Source: Patescibacteria group bacterium (GTDB lineage: Bacteria; Patescibacteriota; Patescibacteriia; JACRDY01). From it: 64,000 nt of DNA. A program made the position numbers and the translations under genes. This document shows positions 2,302-44,995 of the stretch, one piece after another; positions within the stretch are counted from its first letter, which is position 1, and each line of letters opens with the position of its first letter. The stretch is taken from the NCBI GenBank assembly GCA_041650515.1, contig JBAZLA010000005.1, forward strand, positions 2,034 through 66,033. Reading direction: 5' to 3'. The notes under the pieces are model-generated. The model saw nothing but the letters and a program-made list of their open reading frames with translations. It ran no database searches and had not been told where the DNA came from.

Positions 2302-2416
2302 TCGGGGATGCGGGATCCTTCGTCCCGACTTTACGTCGGGACTCAGGACAAGCCCGAACCCGCGACCTGTCCGATGGACATCGGACCGCGCTAGCCTCTG
2401 CCGGCTGGCGGATGCG
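2302..2416 (-). pseudogene. degenerate tRNA-like copy (T-arm/acceptor of tRNA-Pro) interrupted by a palindromic repeat unit
   Basis: A 29-bp direct repeat, tgtttaatatctctatcggggatgcggga, is shared with the 3' end of the adjacent tRNA-Pro. The T-stem halves GCGGG...CCCGC are retained, but the T-loop carries an inserted hairpin (gtcccgacgtaaagtcgggac gaaggatc). No acceptor 5' strand or canonical anticodon arm could be found. Confidence 0.4.
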
Positions 2417-2587: not shown

Positions 2588-3832
2588 ATGGCTGATTTAT
2601 TTGATAAAAACTATCACCAGCTTTCGCCGTTAGCTGACCGCATGCGTCCCAAAAAATTAGCTGATTTTATGGGTCAAGAGCATTTGGTTGGGCCGGAAAA
2701 ACTGTTGCGCCAAGCGTTAGAAGGGGATCAATTACCGTCAATGATTTTTTGGGGTCCGCCGGGCGTGGGTAAAACCACTTTGGCCCGGATTATCGCCGAG
2801 ATTACTCAGTCGGCTTTTATGCAGTTTAGTGCAGTGACTAGCGGGGTTAAAGAACTGCGCGAAGTGATTAAGAAAGCCAAGGATAGCTTAAAATATCATA
2901 GCCAAAGAACAATCTTATTTATTGACGAAGTCCATCGTTGGAATAAAGCCCAACAGGACGCGCTATTGCCGCATATTGAAGATGGCTCACTAATTTTGAT
3001 TGGCGCCACTACTGAGAATCCTTCGTTTGAGGTTAATTCCGCCCTGCTTTCACGTTGTCGGGTGTTTGTCTTAAATAAATTGTCTGGCCAGAATATTGCT
3101 GATTTGTTAGTTCGGGCAATTAAAGATAAAGAGAACGGCTATGGTAGTTTAAAAATAAAAGTTGATAAAGAAGTTATAAAATACTTAGCGGTGCTCAGCG
3201 ATGGTGACGCGCGGATTGCTTATAACGCTTTGGAGTTTGCGGTGACCGCGGCGCCCAAAGGCAAGGAAATAATTTTAGATCAAGATAAAATTAAGGAAGC
3301 ATTACAAAAGTCGCATTTGCTTTATGACCGCGCCGGAGAAGAACATTTTAATATTATCTCGGCATTGCACAAAAGTTTGCGCGGCTCTGACCCGGATGCA
3401 TCTTTATATTGGTTAGCGCGAATGCTTGAGGCCGGGGAGGATCCGCTTTACGTTGCTAGAAGATTAGTTCGTTTTGCTTCCGAGGATATTGGTCTGGCTG
3501 ACCCGCAGGCCTTAGTTCAAGCCGTTAGCGCTTATCAAGCTAGCCATTTTATTGGTATGCCAGAATGCAATGTGATTCTAGCTCAAGTGGTGGTTTATTT
3601 AGCCAAAGCGCCAAAAGACAATTCTTTGTATGTGGCTTATGGGCAGGTGCAAAAAGATGTTAAAGAAACCGAGGCTGATCCAGTGCCCCTGCATTTACGT
3701 AACGCGCCGACTAACTTGATGAAAGAGCTGGGTTATGGTAAAGGTTATAAATATAATCCCAATTTTGATTATCAGGGCGATATTCAGGATTATTTGCCGC
3801 CGAAATTAAAAGGGCGAAAATATTTGAAGTAG
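2588..3832 (+). CDS. rarA: replication-associated recombination protein A (AAA+ ATPase RarA/MgsA)
   Basis: Walker A WGPPGVGKTTLA, Walker B LFIDEVHRWNKAQQD and the RarA C-terminal helical domain. A good SD (aaggggagg) lies upstream. Confidence 0.9.
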   Translation: MADLFDKNYHQLSPLADRMRPKKLADFMGQEHLVGPEKLLRQALEGDQLPSMIFWGPPGVGKTTLARIIAEITQSAFMQFSAVTSGVKELREVIKKAKDSLKYHSQRTILFIDEVHRWNKAQQDALLPHIEDGSLILIGATTENPSFEVNSALLSRCRVFVLNKLSGQNIADLLVRAIKDKENGYGSLKIKVDKEVIKYLAVLSDGDARIAYNALEFAVTAAPKGKEIILDQDKIKEALQKSHLLYDRAGEEHFNIISALHKSLRGSDPDASLYWLARMLEAGEDPLYVARRLVRFASEDIGLADPQALVQAVSAYQASHFIGMPECNVILAQVVVYLAKAPKDNSLYVAYGQVQKDVKETEADPVPLHLRNAPTNLMKELGYGKGYKYNPNFDYQGDIQDYLPPKLKGRKYLK

Positions 3833-3840
3833 TTTTTTAC

Positions 3841-4043
3841 TGTCATCCTGAGCGGAGCCCCGCCTTTGGCGGGGCGCAGTTGAAGGATCCCTTTTTATGC
3901 CACAAGGATAAATATTTTACTAATGATTATTGGCGGATTAGGCTAATAATATTGAGTATTTTAGTTTATTTGATCAATTAAGTTTGAAATAATTTAATTC
4001 TGAGTGGATGGGAAAGTGATCCTTCACTTCGCTCAGGATGACA
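3841..4043. repeat. MITE-like element with terminal inverted repeats tgtcatcctgagcgg...gaaggatcc / gatccttc...gctcaggatgaca
   Basis: A ~200-bp AT-rich core is flanked by perfect inverted ends (3841-3890 and 4018-4043). The internal motif tttatgccacaagg matches, in inverted orientation, the copy at 28046-28204. Confidence 0.6.
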
Positions 4044-4109
4044 GAATAATAAGAGACAGTGATACCGCCAGGCCTAGATTGGGTCTAGTTGTTTGAATAT
4101 ATTGAAGAA

Positions 4110-4855: not shown

Positions 4856-6499
4856 ATGCCAAAGTGTAAACATTGTCATCAAGACTTTACCATTGATCAG
4901 CAAGAGCAGCAGTTTTATCAAGAGATAAAAGTACCGACGCCGACCTTTTGTCCGGACTGTCGCCAACAGCGGCGTTTGGCTTGGACTAACGAGCTAACAT
5001 TATATAACCGGAAGTGCGATCTGACTGGCAAAAATGTTATCTCGATGTTCAATCCTGATGTGCCCTTTCCGGTTTATGATTTTCATGAGTGGTGGGGCGA
5101 CAAGTGGGACGCTGGTAAATATGGCGCTGACTATAATCCAGAGCAATCTTTTTTTGACCAATTTATTGCGCTAAAAAATCGCGTGCCCCACCCATCGCTG
5201 GAGGCTAATATCACTCTACAGAATAGCGACTATACTAACTACTGCGGTTATGCGGTTAATTGTTTTTTGATCTTTGATTCGGCTTATACTGAGAATTGTT
5301 ATTATGGTTATACACTAATCCGCTGCAAAGAGGCGGTGGACTGCATGAAGAGCCATGGCTGTGAATACTGTTATTATTGCTCCGATTGTACCAGCTGTTT
5401 CAAACTCAAGTATAGCCAGGACTGCAATAAATGCTCCGAAAGTTATTTCCTTAAATATTGTTCCGGTTGTAACAGTTGTTTTGGTTGTATCAATCTGCGA
5501 AACAAAAGTTATTGTTGGTTAAATAAACAGCTGACGCCGGAAGAATATAATAAGCGATTGGCAATGGTTGATTTTGGCAGTCGGGAAGTAGTGGCTAAAG
5601 TCAAAAGCAAGTTTGATGAATTTTGTCTACGTTATCCGCACATCGCCATTCACGGCATCAAAAACGAGGATTGCAGTGGCGATTATTTGAATAGCACCTT
5701 TCAGACTGTTGCTTCTTATGATTGCCGCGATGTTCAAAATTGCCGCTACTCTTATTCTATCAGTTTGGGCGGCAAGGATGTCTATGATGTGTTTCAATTC
5801 GGCGGCGAGAGCCAGATCTTGTATGAAAGCGTGGTTTCCGGCTATAAAAATTATAACTGCAAATTTTGCTATCAAAGCTATACCAGCGGCCAAAATCTGG
5901 AATATTGCTTCAATTGCCTTGGTTCTAAAAATTGTTTTGGCTGTGTTGGTCTGCGCAAAAGGGAATTTTGTATCCTTAATAAACAATATAGCGAGGCTGA
6001 GTATAACCGGTTAAAAGAAGAGATAATTGTCAAAATGACGGCCACTGGCGAGTACGGCGAGTTTTTACCGGCTTCAATGTCACACCATGGCTATAACGAA
6101 ACCAGCGCCATGTTTTATTATCCTTTAACTAAAGAGCAGGCAACAGCTCAAGGATTTTGGTGGTATGACAAAAAAGTAACTGCGCCGGCGGTTAGTAAAA
6201 TAGTGCCGGATAATATTAAGGAAGTTCCTGACGCAATCACTAGCGATGTTTTTGTTTGTAGTTGTGGCAAGTCTTACCGGGTTACCACCCAGGAGTTAAA
6301 ATTTTATCGTGCTTTTAGTATCCCAGTGCCCGAAAAGTGCTATATTTGTCGTCATGTTGACCGGCTGTTCCAACGTAATCCGCAGCATCTTTGGGAACGT
6401 AGCTGTAGTAAGTGCGGTCGGGCGATGCAGACAACTTATGCTCCAGAGCGGCCGGAAATCGTCTATTGTAAAAAGTGTTTTCAAGATGATGTTTATTGA
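4856..6499 (+). CDS. large cysteine-rich protein, paralog 1 (twin terminal zinc-ribbon-like motifs, C-x2-C repeat core); function unknown
   Basis: 547 aa with >40 Cys. N-terminal CKHC..FY..VP.P.FCPDCRQQRR and C-terminal CSCGK..FYRAF.IPVPEKCYICRH motifs. Internal repeats NCFGC(I/V)(N/G)LR...C(W/I)LNKQ. Paralogous to 6897-8579 and 43278-44951. Confidence 0.7.
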   Translation: MPKCKHCHQDFTIDQQEQQFYQEIKVPTPTFCPDCRQQRRLAWTNELTLYNRKCDLTGKNVISMFNPDVPFPVYDFHEWWGDKWDAGKYGADYNPEQSFFDQFIALKNRVPHPSLEANITLQNSDYTNYCGYAVNCFLIFDSAYTENCYYGYTLIRCKEAVDCMKSHGCEYCYYCSDCTSCFKLKYSQDCNKCSESYFLKYCSGCNSCFGCINLRNKSYCWLNKQLTPEEYNKRLAMVDFGSREVVAKVKSKFDEFCLRYPHIAIHGIKNEDCSGDYLNSTFQTVASYDCRDVQNCRYSYSISLGGKDVYDVFQFGGESQILYESVVSGYKNYNCKFCYQSYTSGQNLEYCFNCLGSKNCFGCVGLRKREFCILNKQYSEAEYNRLKEEIIVKMTATGEYGEFLPASMSHHGYNETSAMFYYPLTKEQATAQGFWWYDKKVTAPAVSKIVPDNIKEVPDAITSDVFVCSCGKSYRVTTQELKFYRAFSIPVPEKCYICRHVDRLFQRNPQHLWERSCSKCGRAMQTTYAPERPEIVYCKKCFQDDVY

Positions 6500-6896: not shown

Positions 6897-8579
6897 ATGC
6901 CTCAATGTAAAAATTGCGGCCAGGAATTTATTATCACCGAACAAGATCGGTCTTTTTATAATCGGATTAATGTACCGGAACCGCAAATTTGTTGGGCTTG
7001 CCGGCGGCAACGGCGGCTAGCTTGGCGCAACGAGCGGGTGTTGTATCGGCGCAAGTGTGATTTGTGTCAAACAGAGATGGTTTCGCTGTATCCAGAAAAC
7101 AATCCCACGCCGATTTATTGTCATGAATGTTGGTGGAGTGATAAATGGGGTGGCGCTGATTATGCTCAAGATTTTGATTTTTCCCAACCGTTTTTTGAGC
7201 AGTTTAGCCAGTTAATCAAAAATGTGCCGCGCTTAACTATTATTAATAGCAAAGGTATCAATAGTGATTTTTGTAATTATTCTTACGCCAACAAGAATTG
7301 TTACCTAACTATTGGCTGTCATTATGAAGAAGATTGTTTTTATAATGATCACAGTACCAAGAACCATTCTTGTTTAGAATTAGCTCGTTCGATAAACTGT
7401 GAGTTGTCTTGCAATTGTGTTGATAGCGCAAAATGTTATCAATGTAGCTACTTAGATTTTTGTAAGGAATGTAATAACTGTCATTTTTGCTACAACTGTT
7501 CTGGTTGCCATGATTGTTTTTTGTCTAGCGACCAGTTAAACCAAAAATACGTTTTTAAAAATAAACAATTAACTCCTCATAATTATCAGCAAACAGTCGG
7601 TGATTATTTGAGTGGTAGTTACCAACAGTTTGAACGAGCTCAGCAAGAGTATTTAGAAATTGTTAAAAATACGATTAAAAAATATACCCACCAAGTTTAT
7701 TGTGTTGATTGTGTTGGCGACGATTTGGTTAATTGCAAAAATTTGCGTTATTGTTTTGATGCCACTGGTTGTGCTGATTGCGCTTATGGCGTGCAAATGG
7801 ATGAGCAATATGATTCACGGGATAACGATTATATGGGTTATGATCGGTCAGAAGTTTGTTTGGAGACGATTGGCTGTTCGGGGGTTTTTAATTGCTATTT
7901 TTGTGATTCTTGTTGGCATGATCATCATTTGCAATACTCTAATCTAGCTTTTGGCTCTAATGACTGTTTTGGTTGTGTGGGGATAAAAAACCAGAAATAT
8001 TGTATTTTAAATAAACAATATTCCGAAGATGAATACAAAAAATTATTATCCAAAGTTATTGATCATCTTAAGAAAACAGGGGAGTATGGCTGGTTTTTCC
8101 CCCTTGGTCTTTCACCCTATGGTTATAATGCCACGGTTAATATGGAACCGTATAACCAACCCCTAAACAAAGTGGAGGTCTCTGAGCTTGGTAGCTGGTG
8201 GCAAGAGAATACACCGGGTACTTTTGGCAAGGAAACCATCAACCAATTGCCTGATAATATTGGCGAAGTCGGTGATAATATTATTAAAGAGATTTTAGCC
8301 TGCGCTAATTGTCATAAAAATTTTAAAATCATTACCCAAGAATTGGAGCTTTATAAAAAATTAAATCTACCCTTGCCGCGACTTTGTCCGGATTGCCGTT
8401 ATTTTGCTAGGATCAAGCGGCGGCAGCCACGTCAGTTGTATTTGCGTCAGTGTATGTGTTCTAAAAATCATCAGTGGCATCAGGGGAAAAGTTGTCCTAA
8501 TAAATTTGAAACGGTCTACTCGCCAACTGGCGCGGAGCAACTTTATTGCGCTGAATGTTATCGACAGGAAACCTATTAA
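6897..8579 (+). CDS. large cysteine-rich protein, paralog 2; function unknown
   Basis: 560 aa with the same architecture as 4856-6499: MPQCKNCGQEF...CWACRRQRRLAWRNE at the N-terminus and CANCHKNFKIITQELELYKKLNLPLPRLCPDCRY at the C-terminus, plus the conserved TGEYGWFFP...SPYGYNAT block. Confidence 0.7.
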   Translation: MPQCKNCGQEFIITEQDRSFYNRINVPEPQICWACRRQRRLAWRNERVLYRRKCDLCQTEMVSLYPENNPTPIYCHECWWSDKWGGADYAQDFDFSQPFFEQFSQLIKNVPRLTIINSKGINSDFCNYSYANKNCYLTIGCHYEEDCFYNDHSTKNHSCLELARSINCELSCNCVDSAKCYQCSYLDFCKECNNCHFCYNCSGCHDCFLSSDQLNQKYVFKNKQLTPHNYQQTVGDYLSGSYQQFERAQQEYLEIVKNTIKKYTHQVYCVDCVGDDLVNCKNLRYCFDATGCADCAYGVQMDEQYDSRDNDYMGYDRSEVCLETIGCSGVFNCYFCDSCWHDHHLQYSNLAFGSNDCFGCVGIKNQKYCILNKQYSEDEYKKLLSKVIDHLKKTGEYGWFFPLGLSPYGYNATVNMEPYNQPLNKVEVSELGSWWQENTPGTFGKETINQLPDNIGEVGDNIIKEILACANCHKNFKIITQELELYKKLNLPLPRLCPDCRYFARIKRRQPRQLYLRQCMCSKNHQWHQGKSCPNKFETVYSPTGAEQLYCAECYRQETY

Positions 8580-8586
8580 ATCCTAT

Positions 8587-8687
8587 GTCATTGCGAGCGG
8601 AGCGAAGCAATCTCCCGAATATATTGAAGAGATTGTTTCGTCGCCTCGCCTCCGCCAACTGGCGAAGGCGAGGCTCCTCACAATGAC
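8587..8687. repeat. palindromic repeat unit (gtcattgcgagcggagcgaagcaatc ... caatgac type)
   Basis: Inverted ends gtcattgcgag / ctcacaatgac, plus nested hairpins (agcaatctc..gagattgtt; gcctcgcc..ggcgaggc). Same family as 31144-31217 and 28205-28260. Confidence 0.55.
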
Positions 8688-8766
8688 GTGAAAATAAATA
8701 GCTGTCTAATTGACGGCTATTTTTAGTTGTGCTAATTTTGGATATCAACCAAGGAGGGATTATTAG

Positions 8767-15526: not shown

Positions 15527-15802
15527 ATGAGCAGTAAAAAAATTTTTACCGAAGAGCAAGCTAAAGCAATAGGGGAGAAGCTAGGCATTAAATGGGATAA
15601 GTTTGATATCGAGCAATTTCGTCGGGGTATGGATGTGGAGCTCGAACACGGTTTAGTGGACCCAGCGACCAATGTAACTAATGATGATCCGCTAACAACC
15701 GGCAAGATTGCCCTAGCCCATCTTAACGAATTTGCTGATTATTACACCCGCTTAGACCAGATGGAAAAAGAGGCTGATGAATTTTGGGGGAGGGAGGAAT
15801 AA
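15527..15802 (+). CDS. hypothetical protein (91 aa)
   Basis: ORF with an acidic C-terminus. No motif recognised. Confidence 0.45.
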   Translation: MSSKKIFTEEQAKAIGEKLGIKWDKFDIEQFRRGMDVELEHGLVDPATNVTNDDPLTTGKIALAHLNEFADYYTRLDQMEKEADEFWGREE

Positions 15803-15840
15803 TTACTAATTAAAAATTAATAATTACGAATTAATAATTA
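15801..15840. repeat. AATTAC(G/T)AATTA heptad-type tandem motif
   Basis: aattactaattaaaaattaataattacgaattaataatta. The same motif recurs at 26598, 28836 and 44950. Confidence 0.4.
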
Positions 15841-15866: not shown

Positions 15867-16089
15867 TATTTGTTATTTGATTATTTGAAGAAGGAGAGTT
15901 GTATTATTAGGGGAGAATATTTAGAGGTTTGGGTTTAGCTCTATGGTAGTGTCGCACAATATATCTTATGCGTCGCTTGAATAGGGCTTTTAAGCTCAAA
16001 CTGGTCTAGAGATTATAAAAACCCCTGTCCTGGGGCTGATTATAATTTTAATGGATTTAATTACTAATTATTAATTAAAAAAATAATAA

Positions 16090-17040: not shown

Positions 17041-19443
17041 TTAATATTTTTTATTTTGGATTAATTTTTCTAGAAGTTCTCTGGGGAAAATTGGTGGAGT
17101 CTCGGCTAGAGCTTGTTGATACAGGACTGTTGAGGGGGTTAAACCTGGCAAGGTGTTGACCTCAATAATTAATAAATCGCCGGTTTGAATATTAACAAAG
17201 GCATCGATTCGGGCATAGCCACGCAGGCCAATTTTTTTGGCTACTAGTTGGATCGATTTTTTTATTTTTGATAATACTGCGGGTTTAATAATATCTTTTG
17301 GCGGCGGGGTGATATTAATTCCAGTGCCGCCTTGGAATTTTTCTTCCACAGTTAGCACCTCCCCTTCTACCACCGTGATACTGGGGTTAAAAGCTTTAAG
17401 CGTGTTGTGATCCTCCACGACGCCAACGGTTATTTCGACCCAGCCGGTACGATGGCCGTGTTTTAATTGATTATTGTGCGCTCGCAGGATGTCAGTATAT
17501 ACAAACTGCTCTAGCAGTAATTCGGTGGGCGGGCTTGGCGGCATTTCGATAATACTTAGCTGGTTTTGAAATGTTTGTTTGGGTATACAGCCATCGCCGG
17601 TGGCGATAATTTTTAGATATTTTGCCAAATCGTTGGCGGAATAAAGATGAGCAATCCCCGTGCTGCAGCCATCGCCGCGCGGTTTGATGATTAATGTTTT
17701 GGCGGTCAGCTCTTTTTGGGCTTTGGTCCAGAGCTGTTCAATTTGTTTTTGGTTAAATTTTATGGCGGTTTTGGTTTTGATTATTTTTCCAGGAACAGAT
17801 TTAACCCCGGGTATTTTTAATTGGTTAATAAAATTGGCCGTTGCCCGTTTATCCATACACAGGCGCGAAGCTTGTTCCTCTGGGCCGTTAAACCGTACTC
17901 CCCTCTTAGTTAGTATTTTTTGGAGGTTGCCGTTTTCACCATCACCACCGTGCAGAGCAATAAAAATGAAATCAGACTCTTTAATCAGTTGATTAAAGTT
18001 TAGTTTCTCCGGCGCAAAAAAATCTTTCTTGTCTTTAATCTCCGTTAAACCAAGGTGTAGCCTGGCTCTTTCCTCGAACGAAGTTAGTCTTTTGGCGGCC
18101 GCTTGATAATGGCGGCAATTTTGGGTGATTTCTTCAACTGTGTGATTAAGACAGAGATGATAGGGCAAGCGCCAGATTAAGCCTTGGGGGTCTAATAAAT
18201 AAGGTTTGGGTTGATATTTAGTTGACCGGCGAAGCTTAAGCCAGACATTAGTGCCGCTCATCAGTGAAACTTGTCTTTCCGAGTCAGCGCCGCCCATCAG
18301 AACACTGACCGGCTGACGACGTGTGGTAATGGTTTTTTGAGCAACCGGAAACGGTATATTATAACGGTTACAAGTTCGTTTGATGATATATTGTAAAACG
18401 TCACTATGCGTTAGGCCGATCCGACTGGCTTGTTGAAAAAGAAAACTATTTTGCTCCATGCCGCTGATCATATTAAAGTCGCAGAACCAGATTTGGCCGT
18501 TGGGTAGTACCCAGCCATCGAACCGGCCAAAATCGCGCATTTTGAATAGTGAAAAAAGTTGTTCACCTTGAGCTTGGATTTTTTCAATTATTTTGTCGTT
18601 AAATCTTGGCGGGCAATGCCAGGTTACTTGGTGGGTGGGTAGATATTTTTTGCGAAAATCAAAAATCTGGTGTTCGGTGTAATCGGTTTCGATCTCGGTT
18701 GGCGGCAGGGCCACGGGTAACCCCAGGTGATTTTCTAAAATAATCATGGTAAATTCTGTGCCTTTGGCAAACGGTTCAATAACCACCCGGTTGGTAGTCC
18801 GCTGGGAAAAAAGTAGTTTAGCTTTAGCTAGAGCCTGGTTCGGAGTGGCCACGGAAAAAACACCAATACTCGAGCCACCAATAGCGGGTTTAACGATCGC
18901 TCGTTTAATTTGATAATTTTTGAAGAATTTTTTCACTATTTGACGGTGGTCGGAATGATTAATTCTGAGCACCGCTGACGGTAGGGTAAAAAATCCTTGT
19001 TGTTTAATAAACTCGTTAGCGATAAATTTATCAAAAGCCTGGCGGCAAGTCGGAGCGCTTGAGCCGACAAAAGGTAAATGGTGCTTTGCCAAAAAACTCT
19101 GGATCTGGCCGTCCTCGCCAAACTGGCCATGCATGGCTGGAAAAGTGATATCTATTTTTTTGAGTAAACTAACTAACCCTTTGGCGGTCAGTGGTTGAGC
19201 GGTTTGTTTGAGTTTAAAATCAAAATCAGATGGCGTGTTGCTATATAATTGAGCTTTGGAAATCTGGTAAGGGTTTTTTTGAGTATCAAAATAAATCGGT
19301 ATAATTTCTATCTGGGCCGATTGTAAGTGATCCATCAGCGACCGGGAAGAATTTAGCGAAATCCCCCGCTCGGCCGAGGGACCGCCGCAGAGAACAGCTA
19401 CTTTTAGTTTGGCTGTTGTTTTTTTTGAGTTAATATTTGACAT
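17041..19443 (-). CDS. ddl: tandem-duplicated D-alanine--D-alanine ligase (two complete ATP-grasp Ddl modules fused, 800 aa)
   Basis: Two Ddl N-terminal signatures (KVAVLCGGPSAERGISLNS and VSVLMGGADSERQVSLMSG). The C-terminal Ddl motif ARIDAFV...IIEVNTLPGLT is complete, and the first half has a diverged ATP-grasp C-terminal region. Confidence 0.8.
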   Translation of the reverse strand: MSNINSKKTTAKLKVAVLCGGPSAERGISLNSSRSLMDHLQSAQIEIIPIYFDTQKNPYQISKAQLYSNTPSDFDFKLKQTAQPLTAKGLVSLLKKIDITFPAMHGQFGEDGQIQSFLAKHHLPFVGSSAPTCRQAFDKFIANEFIKQQGFFTLPSAVLRINHSDHRQIVKKFFKNYQIKRAIVKPAIGGSSIGVFSVATPNQALAKAKLLFSQRTTNRVVIEPFAKGTEFTMIILENHLGLPVALPPTEIETDYTEHQIFDFRKKYLPTHQVTWHCPPRFNDKIIEKIQAQGEQLFSLFKMRDFGRFDGWVLPNGQIWFCDFNMISGMEQNSFLFQQASRIGLTHSDVLQYIIKRTCNRYNIPFPVAQKTITTRRQPVSVLMGGADSERQVSLMSGTNVWLKLRRSTKYQPKPYLLDPQGLIWRLPYHLCLNHTVEEITQNCRHYQAAAKRLTSFEERARLHLGLTEIKDKKDFFAPEKLNFNQLIKESDFIFIALHGGDGENGNLQKILTKRGVRFNGPEEQASRLCMDKRATANFINQLKIPGVKSVPGKIIKTKTAIKFNQKQIEQLWTKAQKELTAKTLIIKPRGDGCSTGIAHLYSANDLAKYLKIIATGDGCIPKQTFQNQLSIIEMPPSPPTELLLEQFVYTDILRAHNNQLKHGHRTGWVEITVGVVEDHNTLKAFNPSITVVEGEVLTVEEKFQGGTGINITPPPKDIIKPAVLSKIKKSIQLVAKKIGLRGYARIDAFVNIQTGDLLIIEVNTLPGLTPSTVLYQQALAETPPIFPRELLEKLIQNKKY

Positions 19444-21242: not shown

Positions 21243-21350
21243 TGTCATCCCTCGTCCGCCGCAAGCGGACGAAGGATTGGCCTGTTTCTATTAATGATCC
21301 GATCCTTTGCGGAGTTTACCCTGAGCGCAGCGAAGGGCTCGGGATGACAG
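21243..21350. repeat. palindromic repeat unit (tgtcatccctcgtccgccgcaagcggacgaaggat ... ctcgggatgacag)
   Basis: Inverted termini tgtcatcc / ggatgaca, with the internal conserved core gcggagtttaccctgagcgcagcgaagg shared with copies at 22843 and 28205. Confidence 0.55.
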
Positions 21351-21376
21351 TAGTAGGGTTTATTTGCGGTCAAAAT

Positions 21377-21907
21377 CTACTTAATAATCGTGACGCTAGC
21401 TGGCAACTTTTCTTGAATAATACCCAAATCGAGTGTGGAATAATTATTGCCGGAGATATTTAATGTCTTCAGATTTTGGAGATTGCCTAATTCATAAGGC
21501 AGGCCGGTTAGCTGGTTATTAGATAGATCAAGTATCTGGAGGTTTTTTAGTTGGCCGATTTCCGCCGGCACGCCAGTCATTTGGTTATTACTGGCTTTAA
21601 GCACCTTTAGACTTTGCAGCTGTCGGATTTCCGCCTGGATCGCGCCGGTCAGCAAATTATTGGATAGATTAAGTTCGACCAAGTTTTTTTGCTTAAAAAC
21701 GTATTCAGGCACTTTAGTCAGCTGCTGATTACTTAGATCGAGCTTGTCGCTAGCCGTTGTTATGGGTGTGTTATTTACCGGTAGCGGAGTATTGTTGTTT
21801 TGCAACGCCGGGTTGGTATCGGCGGTGTTTAGCGCTGGCTGGCCGGTTAAGGCGCAACCGGTTAATAGCAGGCCAAGGCCGATAGCTATAAAAAATATCT
21901 TCTTCAT
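21377..21907 (-). CDS. leucine-rich-repeat lipoprotein
   Basis: Lipoprotein signal MKKIFFIAIGLGLLLTGC, followed by ~6 LRRs (LxxLxLSNNQLTGLP). Confidence 0.75.
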   Translation of the reverse strand: MKKIFFIAIGLGLLLTGCALTGQPALNTADTNPALQNNNTPLPVNNTPITTASDKLDLSNQQLTKVPEYVFKQKNLVELNLSNNLLTGAIQAEIRQLQSLKVLKASNNQMTGVPAEIGQLKNLQILDLSNNQLTGLPYELGNLQNLKTLNISGNNYSTLDLGIIQEKLPASVTIIK

Positions 21908-21972
21908 ATATTTGGGGTTAGATTAATTAGAGCTTCTCCTTATATTCTACCGCTTTTAAGTCATTTACGCCA

Positions 21973-22335
21973 CTATCTCTTTTTGAGCCAGCCAACAAGA
22001 AACAGGGTGCCAATAAAAAAGGTCGGAACGGCGATAATAAAAGAATATGATAACAAATACCACTCGAATTCTGGATTTCTTAAAATTAACCCGAGGTATA
22101 AAAATCCGGCTAGAATAAAGATAATTCCACCAACGATTTCGCGCTTCCAGGCTAGCCAAAGAACAATCGCTAGGATAACCGCCGGGATATTGTGAATCAG
22201 TAAAGCTACCACAGTCCCCCCAAATCCGTAGTGACCCTCGAACACGTCCAAGGAGAATAAAGTCAAAAAAATAATGAATAGAATAGACATTATTCTGGGA
22301 GTCCAATAGATAAATTTATTAACTTTTTTTTCCAC
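21973..22335 (-). CDS. integral membrane protein (120 aa, 4 TM)
   Basis: Hydrophobic helices. Chosen over the overlapping alternative frame 21965-22306. Confidence 0.45.
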   Translation of the reverse strand: MEKKVNKFIYWTPRIMSILFIIFLTLFSLDVFEGHYGFGGTVVALLIHNIPAVILAIVLWLAWKREIVGGIIFILAGFLYLGLILRNPEFEWYLLSYSFIIAVPTFFIGTLFLVGWLKKR

Positions 22336-22341
22336 AATGTT

Positions 22342-22830
22342 TTAAGCTATTTGGGCAAACAACACTACGTAGTTTTTGCCATAGGCTTTGGCGCATTTAG
22401 GGCAAGTGGTGTAGGAAAAATATAATTTTTTAATTTTTTGATTTTTACTCTCCACGTACTGGTGCATTTCCTCAGCCCACTTGCCGGCATTTTGGTATGG
22501 GCCTTCAAAAACTTTGGTCAGAAAAGTGCCAGAAAGCGTGGCCATCTTGACGCCAGGAACAGCTTTAGTCACATCAATATAAATATCCGAACCCCACGGC
22601 GATTCATCAAATAACATTAATTGGTGGGCTGATTTAGCTCCAGCTTTTTCAATTAGGGCCATATTTTTAACTATCTTTTTACCCATATTGAGCGGAATAT
22701 GCAGAAAATTCGTGACATGGTCTTTAACAAAAACTTTGTCTTCCCACATGATTTCTTTATCCTGCCACGGCTCGGGATTAAACGGCTCGCAGCAGCCGGT
22801 GGGTTTGATTGGTTGTGTTTGTTCGGTCAT
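22342..22830 (-). CDS. hypothetical protein (162 aa; N-terminal GCCEPF motif, C-terminal CPKC)
   Basis: ORF with complex composition. No family recognised. Confidence 0.45.
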   Translation of the reverse strand: MTEQTQPIKPTGCCEPFNPEPWQDKEIMWEDKVFVKDHVTNFLHIPLNMGKKIVKNMALIEKAGAKSAHQLMLFDESPWGSDIYIDVTKAVPGVKMATLSGTFLTKVFEGPYQNAGKWAEEMHQYVESKNQKIKKLYFSYTTCPKCAKAYGKNYVVLFAQIA

Positions 22831-22842
22831 ATGTTTTTAAGA

Positions 22843-22982
22843 TGTCATCCTGAGTCACGCGTAGCGGGACGAAGGATCAGCCTGTTTCTGCTAACGAGCC
22901 GATTCTTCGCTCCGCTCAGAATGACATATTGGGAATGCTTCGCGGAGTTTATCCTGAACGAAGTGAAGGACTTAGGATGACA
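22843..22982. repeat. composite palindromic repeat (two nested units of the tgtcatcctgag...gaaggatc family)
   Basis: tgtcatcctgagtcacgcgtagcgggacgaaggatc, then gcctgtttctgctaacgagccgattcttcgctccgctcagaatgaca, then gcggagtttatcctgaacgaagtgaaggacttaggatgacag. Confidence 0.55.
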
Positions 22983-22992
22983 GAGTAATTAG

Positions 22993-23460
22993 TTACTCCC
23001 ACTTTACTGGCTGGTAGGCGTGGGGGTAAAGGTCTTTAAGAATAAATTTTTGCCATTTGGGGAAAATCCAGCCATTGGGTTTTTGAATATACTGCAAACA
23101 AATAACTGTCGTCTGGGGCGTGCCAAACTCCCACAGCAAAGCCCGGCAAGTGCCGCAAGGTGTGGAGCTATCCTTTTGGACTTTGGGCACGGGATCAGCC
23201 ACGACCACGGTTTTGACTTTAGCCTGATACGACTCAGCTAAAACCATATTAGCTATAGCGTGTCGCTCGCCACAAACGCTAGCGTGGCTGATACTATCCA
23301 CTTCTAAACACCCGCCATCATGGATTTTTCCGCTGTCCGATACCACAAAAGCATACAGTGTATCAATCCCGCTTCTGGCATGGCGAATCTTATTGTATTT
23401 AACCACTTGCTTTTTGGCGTGGTTAAGAAGTTTTTGTTCGGATGGGGTAAGGTGGAGCAT
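22993..23460 (-). CDS. cdd: cytidine/deoxycytidylate deaminase family protein
   Basis: Zinc ligand motifs CGERHAI (H/C-A-E type) and TPCGTCRALL (PCxxCR). 155 aa. Confidence 0.65.
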   Translation of the reverse strand: MLHLTPSEQKLLNHAKKQVVKYNKIRHARSGIDTLYAFVVSDSGKIHDGGCLEVDSISHASVCGERHAIANMVLAESYQAKVKTVVVADPVPKVQKDSSTPCGTCRALLWEFGTPQTTVICLQYIQKPNGWIFPKWQKFILKDLYPHAYQPVKWE

Positions 23461-23607
23461 AAATTCATTTATCGTTTAGATTTTATAATCATTCTAAAGG
23501 GTCGCTAAAAATTATTTCATATAACGTCTGCACGTCATGTGAACTTACGGCTCTGAAGGGCGAACCGCCTATACGCTGTTAGGCGATGTTTAAAGTTTTT
23601 TTATTTT

Positions 23608-24825
23608 TTACCGTTTAATTTTACGGACAATTATTACAATTATAAATACTGCAAGGACACTTAGTAAACCATATAAAACCAAGAATCCGTTTGATGTAAA
23701 ATCCGTCGTTTCTTTAGTGTCGCTAGAAACGAAAGCAGCCCAATCGGCGGTCACTTTTGTCGTGTCAAATGTTTCAACACTGCCGAGCCCAACGCTAGAT
23801 GCCGAAACCATGCTTCCAGCGACAACACTAATTTTTTTGTTGTCGGATTTTGAGGTAAACGAAACTTCTCCTTCGATCACTTGAAGTATTGATTTTTCTT
23901 CTTTCTCTTCTAATATAAGTGTTGTCCCGCTAATCTCCACTACCGCCTGGTCCATATCAATTTCCAGCGACTCATCTTGTATCTTCTTCTCAACAATAAT
24001 TTTCATGCTCCCGTAAAGAATTTGAGAATGACCCTTTTTTTCGCTGGGCTTATTTATAATTATTTCCGTATTCGGCTTTAGGAAAAAAGTAACCCCGTCG
24101 GGGAGAATAATCACTACTGAGCTGTTTGTTTCTGTGCTTATGTGCGTGCCAAAGGGAATGGCCTCGCCCGGCTCAAGACTATGCCACCCTCTTTTATCGA
24201 TGTCAGGACGGATTTTAACTTGACCTAATAAATCTGAGAAACGTGCGCCGGAATCATTAATAAAGCCTTCCAATACAACTTCCGGAAAATCAATAGTCGT
24301 AGTACCTGGCGTAGTTGGAATAACGGAATTATAAACTGTTAATATGCTTTTGCCTTGTAAGTTGGTGATTTTTCCCTTCATTATTCGCCTGGTCCCGTCC
24401 GATGGGTCGATTGCAAAAGTAGCGAAACCATCGAACGTTCCATCCCAGGTTAAAGTAATCGGGCTTGCTGGGGTCTCCGCATTACCGGGACAGGTGCCGT
24501 CCATTAAAGCGTTCATTGTGCCTTTCATATTTCCTGTTTTTGTATCTCGGTCACCAGCAAGATCAAAACTCATGGTGCCGGTACAACGGGTCTCAAAAAA
24601 AGGAAAATCAAAGTCTTCTTTCAGATGAGCAGAAACCTTATTTCTGTTCACTACAAGATCAAAACCGTTCGTAAAAAAACTACTGCTGGCATCTTCAGAG
24701 GCTGGAAATTTTTCACTCTTAAGGACGAAATAATCCTCTGAATATTGTTCTTCGGCTAATGTTGTTTGAGAAAAAATAACTGATAAAAGAATAATTGTGA
24801 GAATCAAATGGAAGTGTTTTTTCAC
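23608..24825 (-). CDS. secreted protein with C-terminal membrane anchor (405 aa)
   Basis: Signal peptide MKKHFHLILTIILLSVIFSQTTLA and a C-terminal TM helix plus KIKR stop-transfer. No catalytic motif. Confidence 0.55.
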   Translation of the reverse strand: MKKHFHLILTIILLSVIFSQTTLAEEQYSEDYFVLKSEKFPASEDASSSFFTNGFDLVVNRNKVSAHLKEDFDFPFFETRCTGTMSFDLAGDRDTKTGNMKGTMNALMDGTCPGNAETPASPITLTWDGTFDGFATFAIDPSDGTRRIMKGKITNLQGKSILTVYNSVIPTTPGTTTIDFPEVVLEGFINDSGARFSDLLGQVKIRPDIDKRGWHSLEPGEAIPFGTHISTETNSSVVIILPDGVTFFLKPNTEIIINKPSEKKGHSQILYGSMKIIVEKKIQDESLEIDMDQAVVEISGTTLILEEKEEKSILQVIEGEVSFTSKSDNKKISVVAGSMVSASSVGLGSVETFDTTKVTADWAAFVSSDTKETTDFTSNGFLVLYGLLSVLAVFIIVIIVRKIKR

Positions 24826-25003
24826 AGTTTTGCAAAAATAGTTAATAAGTTATTTTTAATGATTATATATCAAAAGTGCTTTAAAAAATACTTTCAATTT
24901 CAGCTAACGTTTCGGTATATCCGTAGTCCTAATTATCATATGATATAATCGCGCGGAGCGCTATCATGGGATAGGGAGGATTAGGATGAGCGAGCTAATA
25001 AAA

Positions 25004-25219
25004 TTATTTAAGTCCAAATCTCATTAGGCAATCTTCATAGTAGTTGTTAATAAATTCTTGCCTTTTTGTTTCATCAAATTCTACCACTGCCCTAGTGTCT
25101 AGGCGGGCTTCTGCCGAGCACTGCCCTTTTATTTTTTCAGGACGATATTCATACCAATAAAAAGCAGATCCAATAATTACAATTACTAAGATGATTAAAA
25201 TAATTATAGATTTTTTCAT
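25004..25219 (-). CDS. small membrane protein (71 aa; ORF open to 25288 with TTG)
   Basis: Start placed at the ATG MKKSIIILIILVIVIIG, which is followed by a TM helix. Confidence 0.35.
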   Translation of the reverse strand: MKKSIIILIILVIVIIGSAFYWYEYRPEKIKGQCSAEARLDTRAVVEFDETKRQEFINNYYEDCLMRFGLK

Positions 25220-25333
25220 ATTTAATTTTATTAGTTCGCGAATCGGATATGCCGTGTTAGGCGTAGTATGACTTTTAGTAATAAACAATTGTCAACAACA
25301 AATTTTAATTGTCAACTTAATTGTAAACAAACA

Positions 25334-26587: not shown

Positions 26588-26597
26588 AAATTTAGAA

Positions 26598-26623
26598 TAA
26601 TTACTAATTACGAATTACGAATT
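26598..26623. repeat. AATTACGAATTACG heptad-type tandem motif immediately upstream of the serS start
   Basis: aattactaattacgaattacgaattgg, 10-35 nt upstream of the serS ATG on the coding strand (GTAATTCGTAATTCGTAATT). Confidence 0.4.
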
Positions 26624-27622: not shown

Positions 27623-28033
27623 CTATTTTTCATTTTGTTTAATGATCGAACTTTTGTATTTTTCCGGCTGGAACGGAGCAAGGCGGTAGATCTGGGCGTT
27701 AACGTGAAGTTCAATCAGTTTTTGTCTAAGGATTTCAATCTCCATTTTTTGGTCATAGCCCAGGCAGACCACGTCGGGTTTTAGTTCCTTAATAATTTTA
27801 AATCGGTTTTGTTTGTAGCCGAGTACAGCCTTATCAACATTTTTAGCTTTTTGAACTATTTTGCGGCGGGCGTTTTCACTAAACGCTGGCGGCGCGCCTT
27901 TGTATTTTTTGACATTAATATCGCGAGCCACGACGACAATTAGATAGTCGCCGTACTTTTTAGCCTGAGCAAAAAAATCCAGGTGTCCCGGATGGAGATT
28001 GTCGAAAGTGCCAAAGACCATGACTTTACGCAT
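27623..28033 (-). CDS. cytidylyltransferase-like nucleotidyltransferase (HxGH family, ~137 aa)
   Basis: FGTFDNLHPGH motif. The ORF track extends to 28084, but the extra codons (MERRGILRSAQDDKINL) are encoded by the terminal inverted repeat of the adjacent MITE-like element. Confidence 0.7.
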   Translation of the reverse strand: MRKVMVFGTFDNLHPGHLDFFAQAKKYGDYLIVVVARDINVKKYKGAPPAFSENARRKIVQKAKNVDKAVLGYKQNRFKIIKELKPDVVCLGYDQKMEIEILRQKLIELHVNAQIYRLAPFQPEKYKSSIIKQNEK

Positions 28034-28045
28034 AAGGTTTATCTT

Positions 28046-28260
28046 GTCATCCTGAGCGGAGCGAAGGATCCCTCTCCTCTCCACGTCCAGGAAAATTACT
28101 CAAATAAATCTTTTAGGTTTGTTAGCTAGTAATCTTTAATATGATATTCAACCTTGTGGCATAAAGAGGGATCCTTCGTTCCGCTACGCGGGACTCAGGA
28201 TGACAAATTGGATGGGCAAAGCGGAGTTTATCCTGAGTCCTTCGCTGCGCTCGCAATGAC
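28046..28260. repeat. MITE-like element (tgtcatcctgagcggagcgaaggatccc ... ggactcaggatgaca) plus an adjacent gcggagtttatcctga...gcaatgac unit
   Basis: Inverted termini at 28046-28073 and 28180-28204 bracket an AT-rich core containing ccttgtggcataaa, the inverse of the motif in copy 3841-4043. The second unit is at 28205-28260. Confidence 0.6.
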
Positions 28261-28267
28261 GATGGAA

Positions 28268-28828
28268 TTAGATTCCTACCTCCGCGGCTATCCCTTTCAT
28301 CGCGTTTAAACTAATTTCAATAAACTGATCCAAGGGAATGCCAGCGGTTTCACACTCTTTAATCACCTCGCGGTTGACCTTAGCGGCAAAAGATTTATCT
28401 TTCATTTTCTTTTTAATCGAGCTAACTTCAACTGCTTCCAGTTTCTTTTCTGGCCGGACCAGAGCCGAGGCATAGATCAGGCCGGTGATGGTTTCGGCCG
28501 CGGCCAAAAGATGTTGGCGTTTAGTTTCCCGCTGTTTATCCATTAGGCTGGGCACAAAACCATAAACATGAGCGACAATATCAGTAATAAACTCATCATC
28601 ATAACCAGCGGCTTTTAAAATCTCTTGGCATTTGAGGCCGTGAGTAACTTCACCATATTCCCAATCAACATCATGCAATAAACCTAAATTGCCCCAATAT
28701 TCTTCATTTTCACCCAGGTGTTTAGCTAGGGCTTGCATAATCACTTCGCTCTCCCGGCTGTGATTGAGATTAGCTGGGTCCTTTAGATGTTGGGCTAATA
28801 GATTGTAGGCCTGCTCGCGGGTAGGCAT
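28268..28828 (-). CDS. HD-domain hydrolase
   Basis: H...HD motif (LLHDVDW) in 186 aa. Confidence 0.65.
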   Translation of the reverse strand: MPTREQAYNLLAQHLKDPANLNHSRESEVIMQALAKHLGENEEYWGNLGLLHDVDWEYGEVTHGLKCQEILKAAGYDDEFITDIVAHVYGFVPSLMDKQRETKRQHLLAAAETITGLIYASALVRPEKKLEAVEVSSIKKKMKDKSFAAKVNREVIKECETAGIPLDQFIEISLNAMKGIAAEVGI

Positions 28829-28835
28829 ATATTAG

Positions 28836-28870
28836 TTAATTACGAATTATGAATTACAAATTACGAATTA
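28836..28870. repeat. AATTACGAATTA heptad-type tandem motif immediately upstream of HD-hydrolase start
   Basis: ttaattacgaattatgaattacaaattacgaatta. On the coding strand this gives four TAATTCG/GTAATTC units ending 8 nt before the ATG. Confidence 0.4.
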
Positions 28871-29524
28871 AATATGGTGGGTTACTTCTTTCTCCAATTG
28901 TTTAATAAAATTGGTCATTAATTTGGCCAGCGGTCGGGCAATTTTTTTAGCCGTTGGTGTAGCTACATTATCCAGACAGCTAGCTTGAAAATTTAATTCA
29001 TCGACTAAGTATTGACCAACACCTTGACCCTTAGCAAAACGTTTGTTAAAACCCAGGCTATCTAACTTCCAAGTTGGGCCTTTGATATTGTGGGGATCGT
29101 ATTTTAGCCAAGTTGTGCAAGTGTCACAGGCGCGAATAATCCCAATTGTGCCTAATAAATCTAGAATATCAGCATCTTTTAAAATCGCAGTCAGTCCTTG
29201 GCCTTTACCGCCGGTATTGTGCTCGGCAATTGCTTGTTCAACTTTTTTGGTTTTATCCTCGGATAATATTTTTAATCTTCTTAGATATTGACCAGCAATT
29301 TTGGCGCCTGCCCGCCCGTGTTCTCGCTGATTAGTAACGAACGGTCGGCCGATATCGTGCATCAAAGCGGCGATTTCCACCATTTTTAGATCTGGATATT
29401 TTTCTTTTTTGGCAATTAAGACGGCCCATTGGCGCACGCGATCAACATGATCATAGTCGTGAGTCGTTTGGCTTTTGCTTATTTTTTGAACGTACTGCTC
29501 AATTTTTTTGATTTGATTTTTCAT
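28868..29524 (-). CDS. HD-domain phosphohydrolase
   Basis: HDYDHVDRV ... ALMHDIGR motifs. 218 aa. Confidence 0.75.
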   Translation of the reverse strand: MKNQIKKIEQYVQKISKSQTTHDYDHVDRVRQWAVLIAKKEKYPDLKMVEIAALMHDIGRPFVTNQREHGRAGAKIAGQYLRRLKILSEDKTKKVEQAIAEHNTGGKGQGLTAILKDADILDLLGTIGIIRACDTCTTWLKYDPHNIKGPTWKLDSLGFNKRFAKGQGVGQYLVDELNFQASCLDNVATPTAKKIARPLAKLMTNFIKQLEKEVTHHI

Positions 29525-31074: not shown

Positions 31075-31143
31075 ATTTTAAGTTAGGTTAGACTGGTATT
31101 TATTTTAGCTTAAAATGGCCGAATAATCAAATGGAGATTGCAC

Positions 31144-31217
31144 GTCATTGCGAGGAGCGAAGCGACGAAGCAATCCCCTGAATAATCCGGGAGATTGCTT
31201 CGCTTCGCTCGCAATGA
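31144..31217. repeat. near-perfect 74-bp palindrome (gtcattgcgaggagcgaagcgacgaagcaatc ... gattgcttcgcttcgctcgcaatgac)
   Basis: The two halves are reverse complements with a 12-nt centre. Same family as 8587-8687. Confidence 0.6.
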
Positions 31218-31266
31218 CAGGGATAACAAAAGCGGCCTGGAGGCCGCTTATAGAATGGAGATAGCT

Positions 31267-44942: not shown

Positions 44943-44949
44943 AATAATC

Positions 44950-44995
44950 AATTACGAATTACGAATTAATAACTAGATGAGCTAAATTCGTAATT
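44950..44995. repeat. AATTACGAATTACGAATTAAT tandem motif with downstream inverted copy (aattcgtaatt)
   Basis: Immediately upstream of the paralog-3 start. The inverted copy at 44985-44995 could form a stem-loop. Confidence 0.4.

Follow-up and report, generated by a model that had tools for sequence, protein, structure and literature searches.

REP (repetitive extragenic palindromic) sequences fall into a GTAG-tagged and a CGTC-tagged superfamily (Di Nocera, De Gregorio and Rocco, 2013, BMC Genomics 14:522; PMC3733652). GTAG-tagged REP doublets, the REPINs, are mobilised by a single-copy Y1 transposase of the HUH type, denoted REP-associated tyrosine transposase (RAYT) (Nunvar, 2010; Bertels and Rainey, 2011; Ton-Hoang, 2012). 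The CGTC superfamily comprises the families CGTC-1 to CGTC-4 and includes dRS3 of Neisseria as well as RPE-4 and RPE-6 of Rickettsia. According to the text of PMC3733652, its repeats are palindromes of 20-40 bp in many dispersed copies, the tag often reads TGTC (or CCTC), complementary A and T "almost invariably" open the stem, the tail is 3 nt long (consensus CCA), and its members, mostly dimers and sometimes intragenic, form a group that "apparently lacks a dedicated transposase". Units of CGTC-1 to -4 are described there with a perfect 8- or 9-bp stem and a 4- or 5-nt loop of family-own sequence; the peptides listed for intragenic copies are VIPAKAGI, RHSELVSGS, VIAGLDPAI and VIPWLDHGI (Additional file 3), and the abstract mentions secondary host roles of REPs in other bacteria. 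CGTC/TGTC-tagged repeats are widespread, yet without a known mobilising enzyme, unlike the GTAG-tagged REPs. The following sections concentrate on a dispersed hairpin repeat in a stretch of 64,000 nt (hereafter the window) from a Patescibacteria group bacterium (assembly GCA_041650515.1, contig JBAZLA010000005.1, positions 2,034 to 66,033). On balance, and with moderate confidence, its copies are regarded as small non-coding, non-autonomous elements of the REP/REPIN type, which would spread selfishly via single-stranded DNA and a trans-acting enzyme.

Anatomy and arrangement of the hairpin units

Fifteen hairpin units of 26-58 nt were resolved at seven sites (Table 1), all within 2.3-31.3 kb of the window and together covering 886 nt, or 1.4% of its length; none is present at 32-64 kb of the window or in the 9 kb past its end (L154:1-9133). 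The original prediction had proposed a dispersed family of palindromes at these seven sites, and the repeat is indeed present at each of them, with copies that align as one family. Its motif GTCATYSYGAG (at most one mismatch) has 17 matches in the window, 13 of which lie within the reported elements, while dinucleotide shuffles yielded 2.93 +/- 1.51 matches and reached 17 in 0 of 100 trials. With eight strict units in 64 kb (~125 per Mb), the window is about nine times as dense in units as related Patescibacteria loci, which hold 33 in 2.33 Mb (~14 per Mb).

All units follow the same order: the tag (T/C)GTC is followed by a left stem arm made of AT and three variable bases, then by GAG, the tip and CGA or CGAA, and finally by the complementary right arm with AT and a C-rich tail. 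Among 175 units with complementary stems, the tag with the first two stem bases reads TGTCAT in 148, CGTCAT in 16 and otherwise in 11. The tail, C plus two bases, starts with C in 170 of the 175 and is most often CTC (79) or CCC (34), followed by CTA (16) and CCA (5). In 30 distinct 28-mers G2, T3 and C4 are invariant, pair 6-24 is always T-A, and pair 5-25 is A-T in 24, with three double changes to G-C.

The stem positions were examined in 200 units collected without requiring complementarity. The three variable positions are fully complementary in 175 of them and make up ten stem types (CCT/AGG, TCT/AGA, TGC/GCA, CCC/GGG, TCC/GGA, GCT/AGC, CTT/AAG, CTC/GAG, CGA/TCG and TGT/ACA). The two "types" of palindrome distinguished originally, with ATCCT/AGGAT and ATTGC/GCAAT stems, are compensatory variants of one family and otherwise alike. 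Across the 30 distinct 28-mers, 96.7% of the cells are paired and four of the seven pairs change on both sides, including the A-T to G-C exchange at the first stem pair; the covariation score and the percentage paired were matched by 0 of 500 shuffles, and slid controls all remained at or below 51% paired. Pairing within the unit is maintained along one strand, a property that the covarying stems reveal and that recognition of double-stranded DNA would not require.

Inside the stem, the arms enclose a conserved purine internal loop (GA opposite GA or GAA), then a G-C pair and the tip. The minimal tip is CGNAG, so that the core reads GAGCGNAGCGA, with G-C and C-G pairs closing a three-base G-N-A loop. 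GCGNAGC is a classical, very stable DNA mini-hairpin with sheared G.A closure, and 5'-GA/3'-AG tandem mismatches are a stable motif in DNA and RNA. The purine-purine mismatches and the GNA loop exist on the tag strand only. With RNA as well as DNA parameters, folding predictions rate this strand as the more stable of the two in 81-83 of 91 distinct hairpins. Covariation and the one-strand purine mismatches together point to a single-stranded form of the unit.

Tips range from 3 to about 45 nt. Longer ones are GC-rich hairpins, often with GNA-like loops, expansions of a GAGCG pentamer, or an inverted copy of the core plus TAAACTCCGC. The sequence gcggagtttaYcctga, originally described as an internal core shared by several copies, is the tip module of a composite sub-type of unit. 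This 16-mer is held by 38 IMG/VR stretches, about a third to half of them in the same repeat context and the rest chance-like.

Adjacent units are mostly inverted with respect to each other: 64 of 93 pairs are in opposite orientation with the tags outward, at a modal spacer of 16-23 nt, and such a pair is present in all six multi-unit sites of the window. An element consists of two tags-outward units separated by this short spacer or by an AT-rich core of 100-130 nt; single, nested and expanded units are frequent. As DNA, the window dimers fold as single long hairpins, with z of -6.4 to -9.9 for two simple dimers and -2.6 to -3.8 for the composite ones. The two long copies are related to each other: when 28035-28215 is reverse-complemented and aligned with 3831-4053, column identity is 76%, and the alignment takes in the AT-rich core with its TTTATGCCACAAGG motif, in line with the original proposal of one internal motif in opposite orientation. 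Likewise, 21243-21350 and 22843-22982 are homologous and have the left unit, the spacer and the right composite unit in common. The terminal inverted repeats, originally called perfect, are so over 12-14 nt only; beyond that, the arms differ by a hairpin-tip insertion.

Table 1. Units and AT-rich cores of the hairpin repeat, in window positions
Feature	Position	Strand	Remarks
Degenerate single unit, TGTC-CTGAG-TCCCGAC-GTAAA-GTCGGGA-CGAAGGATCC	2313..2350	-	in former T-loop of tRNA-Pro-like remnant
Left unit of 203-nt element	3841..3889	+	stem ATCCT/AGGAT; tip expanded by CCCCGCC-TTTG-GCGGGG hairpin
AT-rich core of 203-nt element (3841-4043)	3890..4017	+	homologous to core of 28045-28205, opposite orientation; TTTATGCCACAAGG motif
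Right short unit of 203-nt element, TGTCATCCTGAGCGAAGTGAAGGATC	4018..4043	-	
Short unit, left half of 103-nt dimer	8586..8612	+	stem ATTGC/GCAAT
Right half of 103-nt dimer	8631..8688	-	stem ATTGT/ACAAT; 14-bp tip hairpin
Left unit, degenerate (CTCG replaces TGAG)	21243..21278	+	tip hairpin TCCGC-CGCAA-GCGGA
Composite unit	21296..21350	-	tag and stem around inverted core hairpin plus TAAACTCCGC (the gcggagtttaccctga module of the original prediction)
Unit	22843..22878	+	stem ATCCT/AGGAT; tip TCACGC-GTA-GCGGGA
Short unit	22901..22926	-	stem ATTCT/AGAAT; tags-outward dimer with 22843-22878
Composite unit with TAAACTCCGC module	22936..22982	-	
Short canonical unit TGTCATCCTGAGCGGAGCGAAGGATC	28045..28070	+	inside ENA gene call starting at GTG 28084
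AT-rich core of 161-nt element (28045-28205)	28071..28169	+	homologous to 3890-4017, reverse orientation
Right end unit of 161-nt element	28170..28205	-	tip TCCCGC-GTA-GCGGAA
Composite unit CGTCATTGCGAGCGCAGCGAAGGA...TAAACTCCGC	28216..28261	-	third unit of the cluster filling the HD-domain / cytidylyltransferase spacer
Left half of 77-nt dimer	31143..31175	+	stem ATTGC/GCAAT; tip GAGCGAAGCGAC
Short unit, right half of 77-nt dimer	31193..31219	-	

Whether the elements are miniature inverted-repeat transposable elements (MITEs), as the original prediction had it, can be judged from these features. As classical MITEs, they would be deletion derivatives of an insertion sequence (IS) with a DDE transposase, the TGTCAT...ATGACA units would serve as double-stranded terminal inverted repeats, and the parent IS would reside elsewhere. 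The elements are dispersed, palindromic and located in spacers; dimer ends start with TGT and finish with ACA, the 161- and 203-nt elements have a mutually conserved AT-rich core, and a window without a transposase fits a non-autonomous element. However, the target-site duplications that MITEs should leave were looked for and direct repeats of at least 4 nt flank 0 of 32 distinct dimers, with counts for k = 2-3 at chance, so that membership in the strict sense fails. Moreover, each "inverted repeat" is itself a self-folding internal hairpin with compensatory changes, which double-stranded binding would not select, no parent IS was recognised, and units are frequently single, expanded within the loop or nested. 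A MITE origin is considered unlikely; "MITE-like" was a fair first label, but it names the wrong class, and the architecture is of the REP/REPIN type instead.

Outside the hairpin, the base before GTCAT is T in 87% of the units, and the next eight upstream positions are pyrimidine-rich. In the window, three tags are separated by 11-12 nt from the start codon of a gene that points away from them, so that ribosome-binding regions, seen in complement, may account for some of the pyrimidine bias. An outward promoter built on ATGACA as a -35-like hexamer was rejected, the predicted -10 boxes falling within the downstream coding sequences.

In the loci fetched for comparison (numbered with the prefix L), truncated copies were observed next to full units, with a period of ~20-27 nt. 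Each keeps the tag and the left arm, breaks off at the hairpin apex and continues into a filler of 8-12 pyrimidine-rich bases. Of 599 full superfamily units, 58 have one or more such apex-truncated copies on the tag side and only 17 on the tail side; none is found in the window. Arrays of them are located at L030:12013-12077, L063:4560-4600, L068:875-1020 and 17400-17462 (minus), and L145:1440-1530. This polarity is a hint that some process begins at the tag or is held up by the hairpin.

Filled and empty spacers in related genomes

Read in reverse complement, positions 62771-126770 of the metagenome contig k141_529379 (ENA ERZ27247363; 127.9 kb) give the window, which carries tightly packed housekeeping genes. 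The best relatives of its seryl-tRNA synthetase (SerRS) belong to Patescibacteria (the candidate phyla radiation, CPR) labelled Buchanan-, Falkow- and Magasanikbacteria, with identities of at most 78% (GTDB) and at most 81% (JGI metagenomes). Contigs of the Logan run SRR8542065 are 99.99-100% identical to the window; they stem from the same population and thus provide no strain-level empty site. Three of them (L149, L151 and L153) begin or end within the repeats, at window positions 31193, 31170 and 8588. As seen at these contig ends, the hairpin repeats fragment short-read assemblies.

The intergenic location predicted for all copies is borne out, and the repeat makes up 40-92% of six spacers, as computed from the coordinates. 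Two loci, L065 and L066, are syntenic with the window. Where the HD-domain gene meets the cytidylyltransferase-like gene, the two overlap or are separated by 1-3 nt in L066, L075, L079, L091 and L139, whereas this junction spans 234 nt in the window, 216 nt of which are a three-unit cluster. The spacer between GreA and lysS in L066 carries a terminator-like hairpin and a promoter-like box as in the window, but not the 77-nt dimer. Among 80 related GTDB loci the motif occurs patchily, in about eight, and is missing from the two closest. Conservation at orthologous positions, which the original prediction would have taken as a sign of regulatory palindromes, was not seen: since the orthologous spacers of related genomes are without the repeat, insertion is favoured over conserved regulatory palindromes. 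With nearest relatives at only 70-81% identity in SerRS, "insertion" here denotes a comparison between species, and the spacers compared belong to genomes with 70-78% protein identity.

These empty spacers also bear on a function for the host. The repeats might be structured elements under selection, acting in mRNA stabilisation or processing, in attenuation or termination, or as sites for nucleoid- or RNA-binding proteins. The predicted hairpins are strong, several copies are located inside what are probably operons, or follow a stop codon and precede a terminator-like hairpin (dimer 8586-8688 just ahead of the separate hairpin 8696-8722), and the secondary roles of REPs elsewhere (abstract of PMC3733652) offer a precedent. 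On the other hand, the repeat is missing from relatives' orthologous spacers, with junctions of 0-3 nt, and its distribution is patchy. Single units between co-directional open reading frames (ORFs) show no orientation bias relative to transcription, the tag being on the coding strand in 35 and on the other strand in 35. No T-run follows the units, and an intrinsic-terminator scan flagged the neighbouring hairpins 31249-31230 and 8696-8722 rather than the units; its only match inside an element, 3863-3886, is weak, with 3 GC pairs. At gathering thresholds, Rfam returned only tRNA-Pro for the window as a whole, and with permissive settings the regions 20-32 kb and 2250-2560 gave chance-level matches. 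The 77-nt dimer 31143-31219 lies between the terminator-like hairpin of GreA (31249-31230, minus) and a promoter-like site upstream of lysS and is therefore probably poorly transcribed. Copies also occur in unrelated gene contexts and inside a coding sequence, the Planktothrix MmeI gene discussed below. Selection for a host function is decidedly unlikely to explain the family.

The ENA call of the cytidylyltransferase-like gene (27623-28084) starts at GTG 28084 and translates through the unit 28045-28070, while homologues and the Logan call start the gene at ATG 28033; the repeat adds 17 codons to the ENA ORF. With one start placed inside a unit, the hairpin repeats mislead gene callers. The closest GTDB relative, L065, is without the family and carries in equivalent spacers a GTAG-tagged doublet (GTAGAGACGCAATGCTTTGCGTCTC...) and a 140-nt AT-rich inverted repeat (L065:9325-9400 and L065:7570-7710); differing palindromic families use the same kind of site.

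Two repeat sites of the window stand in a particular context. Between alr and serS, which are adjacent in L066, L069, L079, L134 and L139, the window has a five-gene block (21265-25333) for a leucine-rich repeat protein, a DUF7670 protein, a hydrolase, a deaminase-like and a FecR-like protein, with one repeat element at its edge and another inside. At the other site, a tRNA-like remnant (2286-2425, minus) adjoins tRNA-Pro(cgg) (2436-2509, minus). The two have AGGTCGCGGGTTC and the last 26 nt, including downstream flank, in common, the remnant being a duplicated 3' part, and the direct repeats 2292-2316 and 2426-2450 are identical at 24 of 25 nt and 134 nt apart. The original prediction had placed its copy 2317-2355 inside a tRNA-like remnant; a degenerate unit does lie there (2313-2350, minus), but ARAGORN and Rfam make no tRNA call for the remnant. 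An integration or excision event at the 3' end of the tRNA may have left it as a scar.

Such sites raise the question whether the units are recombination or integration targets of other mobile elements and multiply only in a passive manner, through duplication and gene conversion. REP or dRS3 sequences serve as insertion sites for IS110/IS1111-type elements and filamentous phages, and a variable gene block bordered by one element and containing another, as well as a unit in a duplicated tRNA 3' end, would fit this explanation. By analogy, so would the identity of CGTC-1 with dRS3 in Neisseria (PMC3733652). The window, in turn, holds no integrase, IS110-like gene or interrupted unit, and passive spread leaves the near-identical 25-mers in genomes of 43-70% GC (see below) unexplained. 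This origin is regarded as very unlikely.

Some further features of the window concern other subjects. A second AT-rich repeat of the type AATTACGAATTACGAATTA (families D1, D3 and D5; 15791-15839, 16058-16081, 26589-26623, 28828-28871 and 44933-44972) occupies short spacers at gene boundaries and is unrelated to the hairpin family. Three diverged paralogues of ~550 aa are encoded at 4856-6499, 6897-8579 and 43278-44951; the first two begin with a treble-clef zinc finger (zf_Tbcl), and the third, with no Pfam hit at E <= 1e-5, is tied to them by the DNA repeats D2, I1 and I4 only. The ORF 17041-19443 (800 aa) comprises two complete D-Ala-D-Ala ligase modules in tandem. Part of the stretch at 32-64 kb is lower in GC, at 35-38%.

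Distribution and the search for a mobilising enzyme

The repeat reaches far beyond the window. The exact 25-mer GTCATCCTGAGCGNAGCGAAGGATC was found in 64 IMG/VR stretches with GC of 43-70%, often as dimers, and a 26-mer with the ATTGC stem in at least 120, while the reversed-sequence control matched 0 stretches. A plasmid search was empty at E <= 0.01; among the matches obtained only at E <= 10, three were verified by reading the sequence, and these are related copies on plasmids of Planktothrix agardhii, Granulicella tundricola and Phocaeicola massiliensis. The first of them (NZ_LR882964.1; L145:1501-1661) has two dimers inside an annotated MmeI-type restriction-modification gene. Weaker BLAST matches appeared on further plasmids, e.g. 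of Hymenobacter, and cultured phages (INPHARED) gave chance-level matches only. Given the plasmid copies in a cyanobacterium, an acidobacterium and members of Bacteroidota, the family extends over Patescibacteria, Cyanobacteriota, Acidobacteriota and Bacteroidota at the least. Units resembling CGTC-1, CGTC-2 and CGTC-4 are also present in related Patescibacteria loci, as is a GAC...GGA family. A literature search with 11- to 18-mers of the repeat returned unrelated primers only, and the RepRanger paper makes no mention of the motif or of Patescibacteria. Hammerhead ribozymes, k-turns and integron attC sites were rejected on inspection of the sequence, which appears to hold neither the CUGANGA...GAAA spacing nor the 3-nt bulge nor an R-box.

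No transposase or integrase was identified among the window ORFs of at least 80 aa with Pfam hits. The statement of the original prediction that the window is free of transposases holds for all of these ORFs, and within the limits of the window the non-autonomous nature of the element is supported. Searches of 3.35 Mb of fetched loci with a Y1 profile, built from the RAYT/TIRYT alignment of PMC3733652, and with jackhmmer from the IS200 of L088 found no Y1 protein except that IS200 itself. A repeat dimer (761-838) is located ~290 nt from its transposase gene (~L088:1-560; Pfam Y1_Tnp, E = 2.6e-32); the hairpins of the IS200 itself, CCGAGCCCTCACGGACTCGG and CCGAGGCCTGACGGCCTCGG, bear no relation to the family. 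Clustering of ORFs within 2 kb of units yielded no recurrent protein family beyond groups of overlapping contigs. Ten ORFs are bracketed by units: six encode tRNA synthetases, a phage portal protein (on an IMG/VR contig) or a protein with an Ig-like domain, the other four are without a Pfam hit, and a transposase domain was found in 0 of the 10. Nor does any fetched sequence contain an IS with unit-like ends. The same unit in several phyla without a recurrent neighbouring gene is a further point against derivation from a DDE-type IS.

With respect to the preferred explanation, it is supposed that the elements are selfish DNA and spread by way of a single-stranded intermediate, with the tag strand folding on itself. 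The hairpin so formed, together with the 5' tag, would be recognised by an enzyme acting in trans, as HUH Y1 enzymes (RAYT, IS200/IS605 TnpA) do on GTAG-tagged REPs. This enzyme need not be a Y1 protein and may come from other mobile elements or from phages. Any consequences for the host (long hairpins within intercistronic RNA, breaks in assemblies, substrates for recombination) would be secondary. Taken alone, the single-strand, HUH-like step is proposed by analogy and with clearly less confidence than the selfish spread of REP/REPIN-type elements as a whole.

Several points weigh against this explanation. The stability gap in favour of the tag strand is partly due to the selection of units with GAG...CGA, and covariation means that pairing is selected or copied, which does not separate single-stranded DNA from RNA. 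The Y1 profile is weak, a true IS200 scoring 18.5 bits, so distant HUH proteins could be missed; the enzyme search covered the window and the fetched loci, and the source genome may hold a cognate enzyme elsewhere. No transposition event, strain-level polymorphism or high-identity empty site was seen among relatives at 70-81% identity in SerRS. Finally, the distinction from CGTC-1 to -4 is drawn from the peptides and text of PMC3733652 rather than from the consensus in its Figure 2.

A bolder proposal, to which a small chance is given, is that the units are the folded single-stranded DNA substrate of a not yet recognised DNA-processing system, which moves orphan CGTC/TGTC repeats through many phyla and partly on phages. 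Its footprint would then be the purine internal loop with the GNA triloop and the polar arrays truncated at the apex on the tag side, and small Patescibacteria genomes rich in copies would give a short list of candidate enzymes. The hairpin-repeat findings alone leave the current understanding unchanged. They add a very widespread family with a distinctive conserved non-Watson-Crick core, place the superfamily in reduced Patescibacteria genomes and in virus-classified contigs, and provide clean interspecies pairs of filled and empty spacers; relating copy number to gene content across small genomes offers a lead in the search for the enzyme.

Comparison with known repeat systems

Like IS-derived MITEs, the elements measure 77-216 nt, have inverted ends, are non-coding and lie in spacers, and the two long copies also possess an AT-rich core. 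They differ in the lack of target-site duplications, in the self-folding, covarying ends and in having no recognisable parent IS. The REPIN/RAYT system is closer: in both cases there is no target duplication, the copies lie in intergenic spacers, a conserved tetranucleotide stands at the 5' foot of a hairpin, and two inverted units plus spacer fold as one long hairpin; recognition in single-stranded form is likely a further common trait. The tag, however, is TGTC/CGTC instead of the GT[AG]G of REPINs, and neither a RAYT nor a REPtron turned up in the window or among 3.35 Mb of related and matching loci, as far as the weak Y1 profile can tell. On the tag, membership in the REPIN/RAYT system fails, though the elements would be REPIN-like in their working. 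Furthermore, the unit is common to several phyla, while REPIN populations are described, in the sources considered, as lineage-specific and vertically inherited.

The greatest resemblance is to the CGTC/TGTC superfamily as the text of PMC3733652 describes it. Both have an unpaired 5' tag, first stem pairs A-T and T-A, a length of 25-40 nt and an unpaired 3' tail that starts with C; both form pairs in opposite orientation, are intergenic with occasional in-frame intragenic copies, occur in several phyla and have no dedicated transposase. The window units differ from CGTC-1 to -4 in their inner part, GAG-CGNAG-CGA(A), which would translate as VILSEAKD, and in arms that are not fully complementary but enclose the conserved purine internal loop. 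In contrast to the CGTC REPs described there, the tip is variable in length (3 to ~45 nt), the tail is mostly CTC or CCC and not CCA, and the host, a member of the Patescibacteria, stands outside the five phyla that the paper lists. The peptide VILSEAKD, set against the four listed ones, and the incomplete pairing of the arms are the grounds for filing the repeat separately. Judged by its sequence and by the peptides and text of PMC3733652, it is probably a further family of the CGTC/TGTC-tagged superfamily, set apart from CGTC-1 to -4; within the literature searched, the superfamily had not been reported from Patescibacteria before and is first seen there with this repeat.

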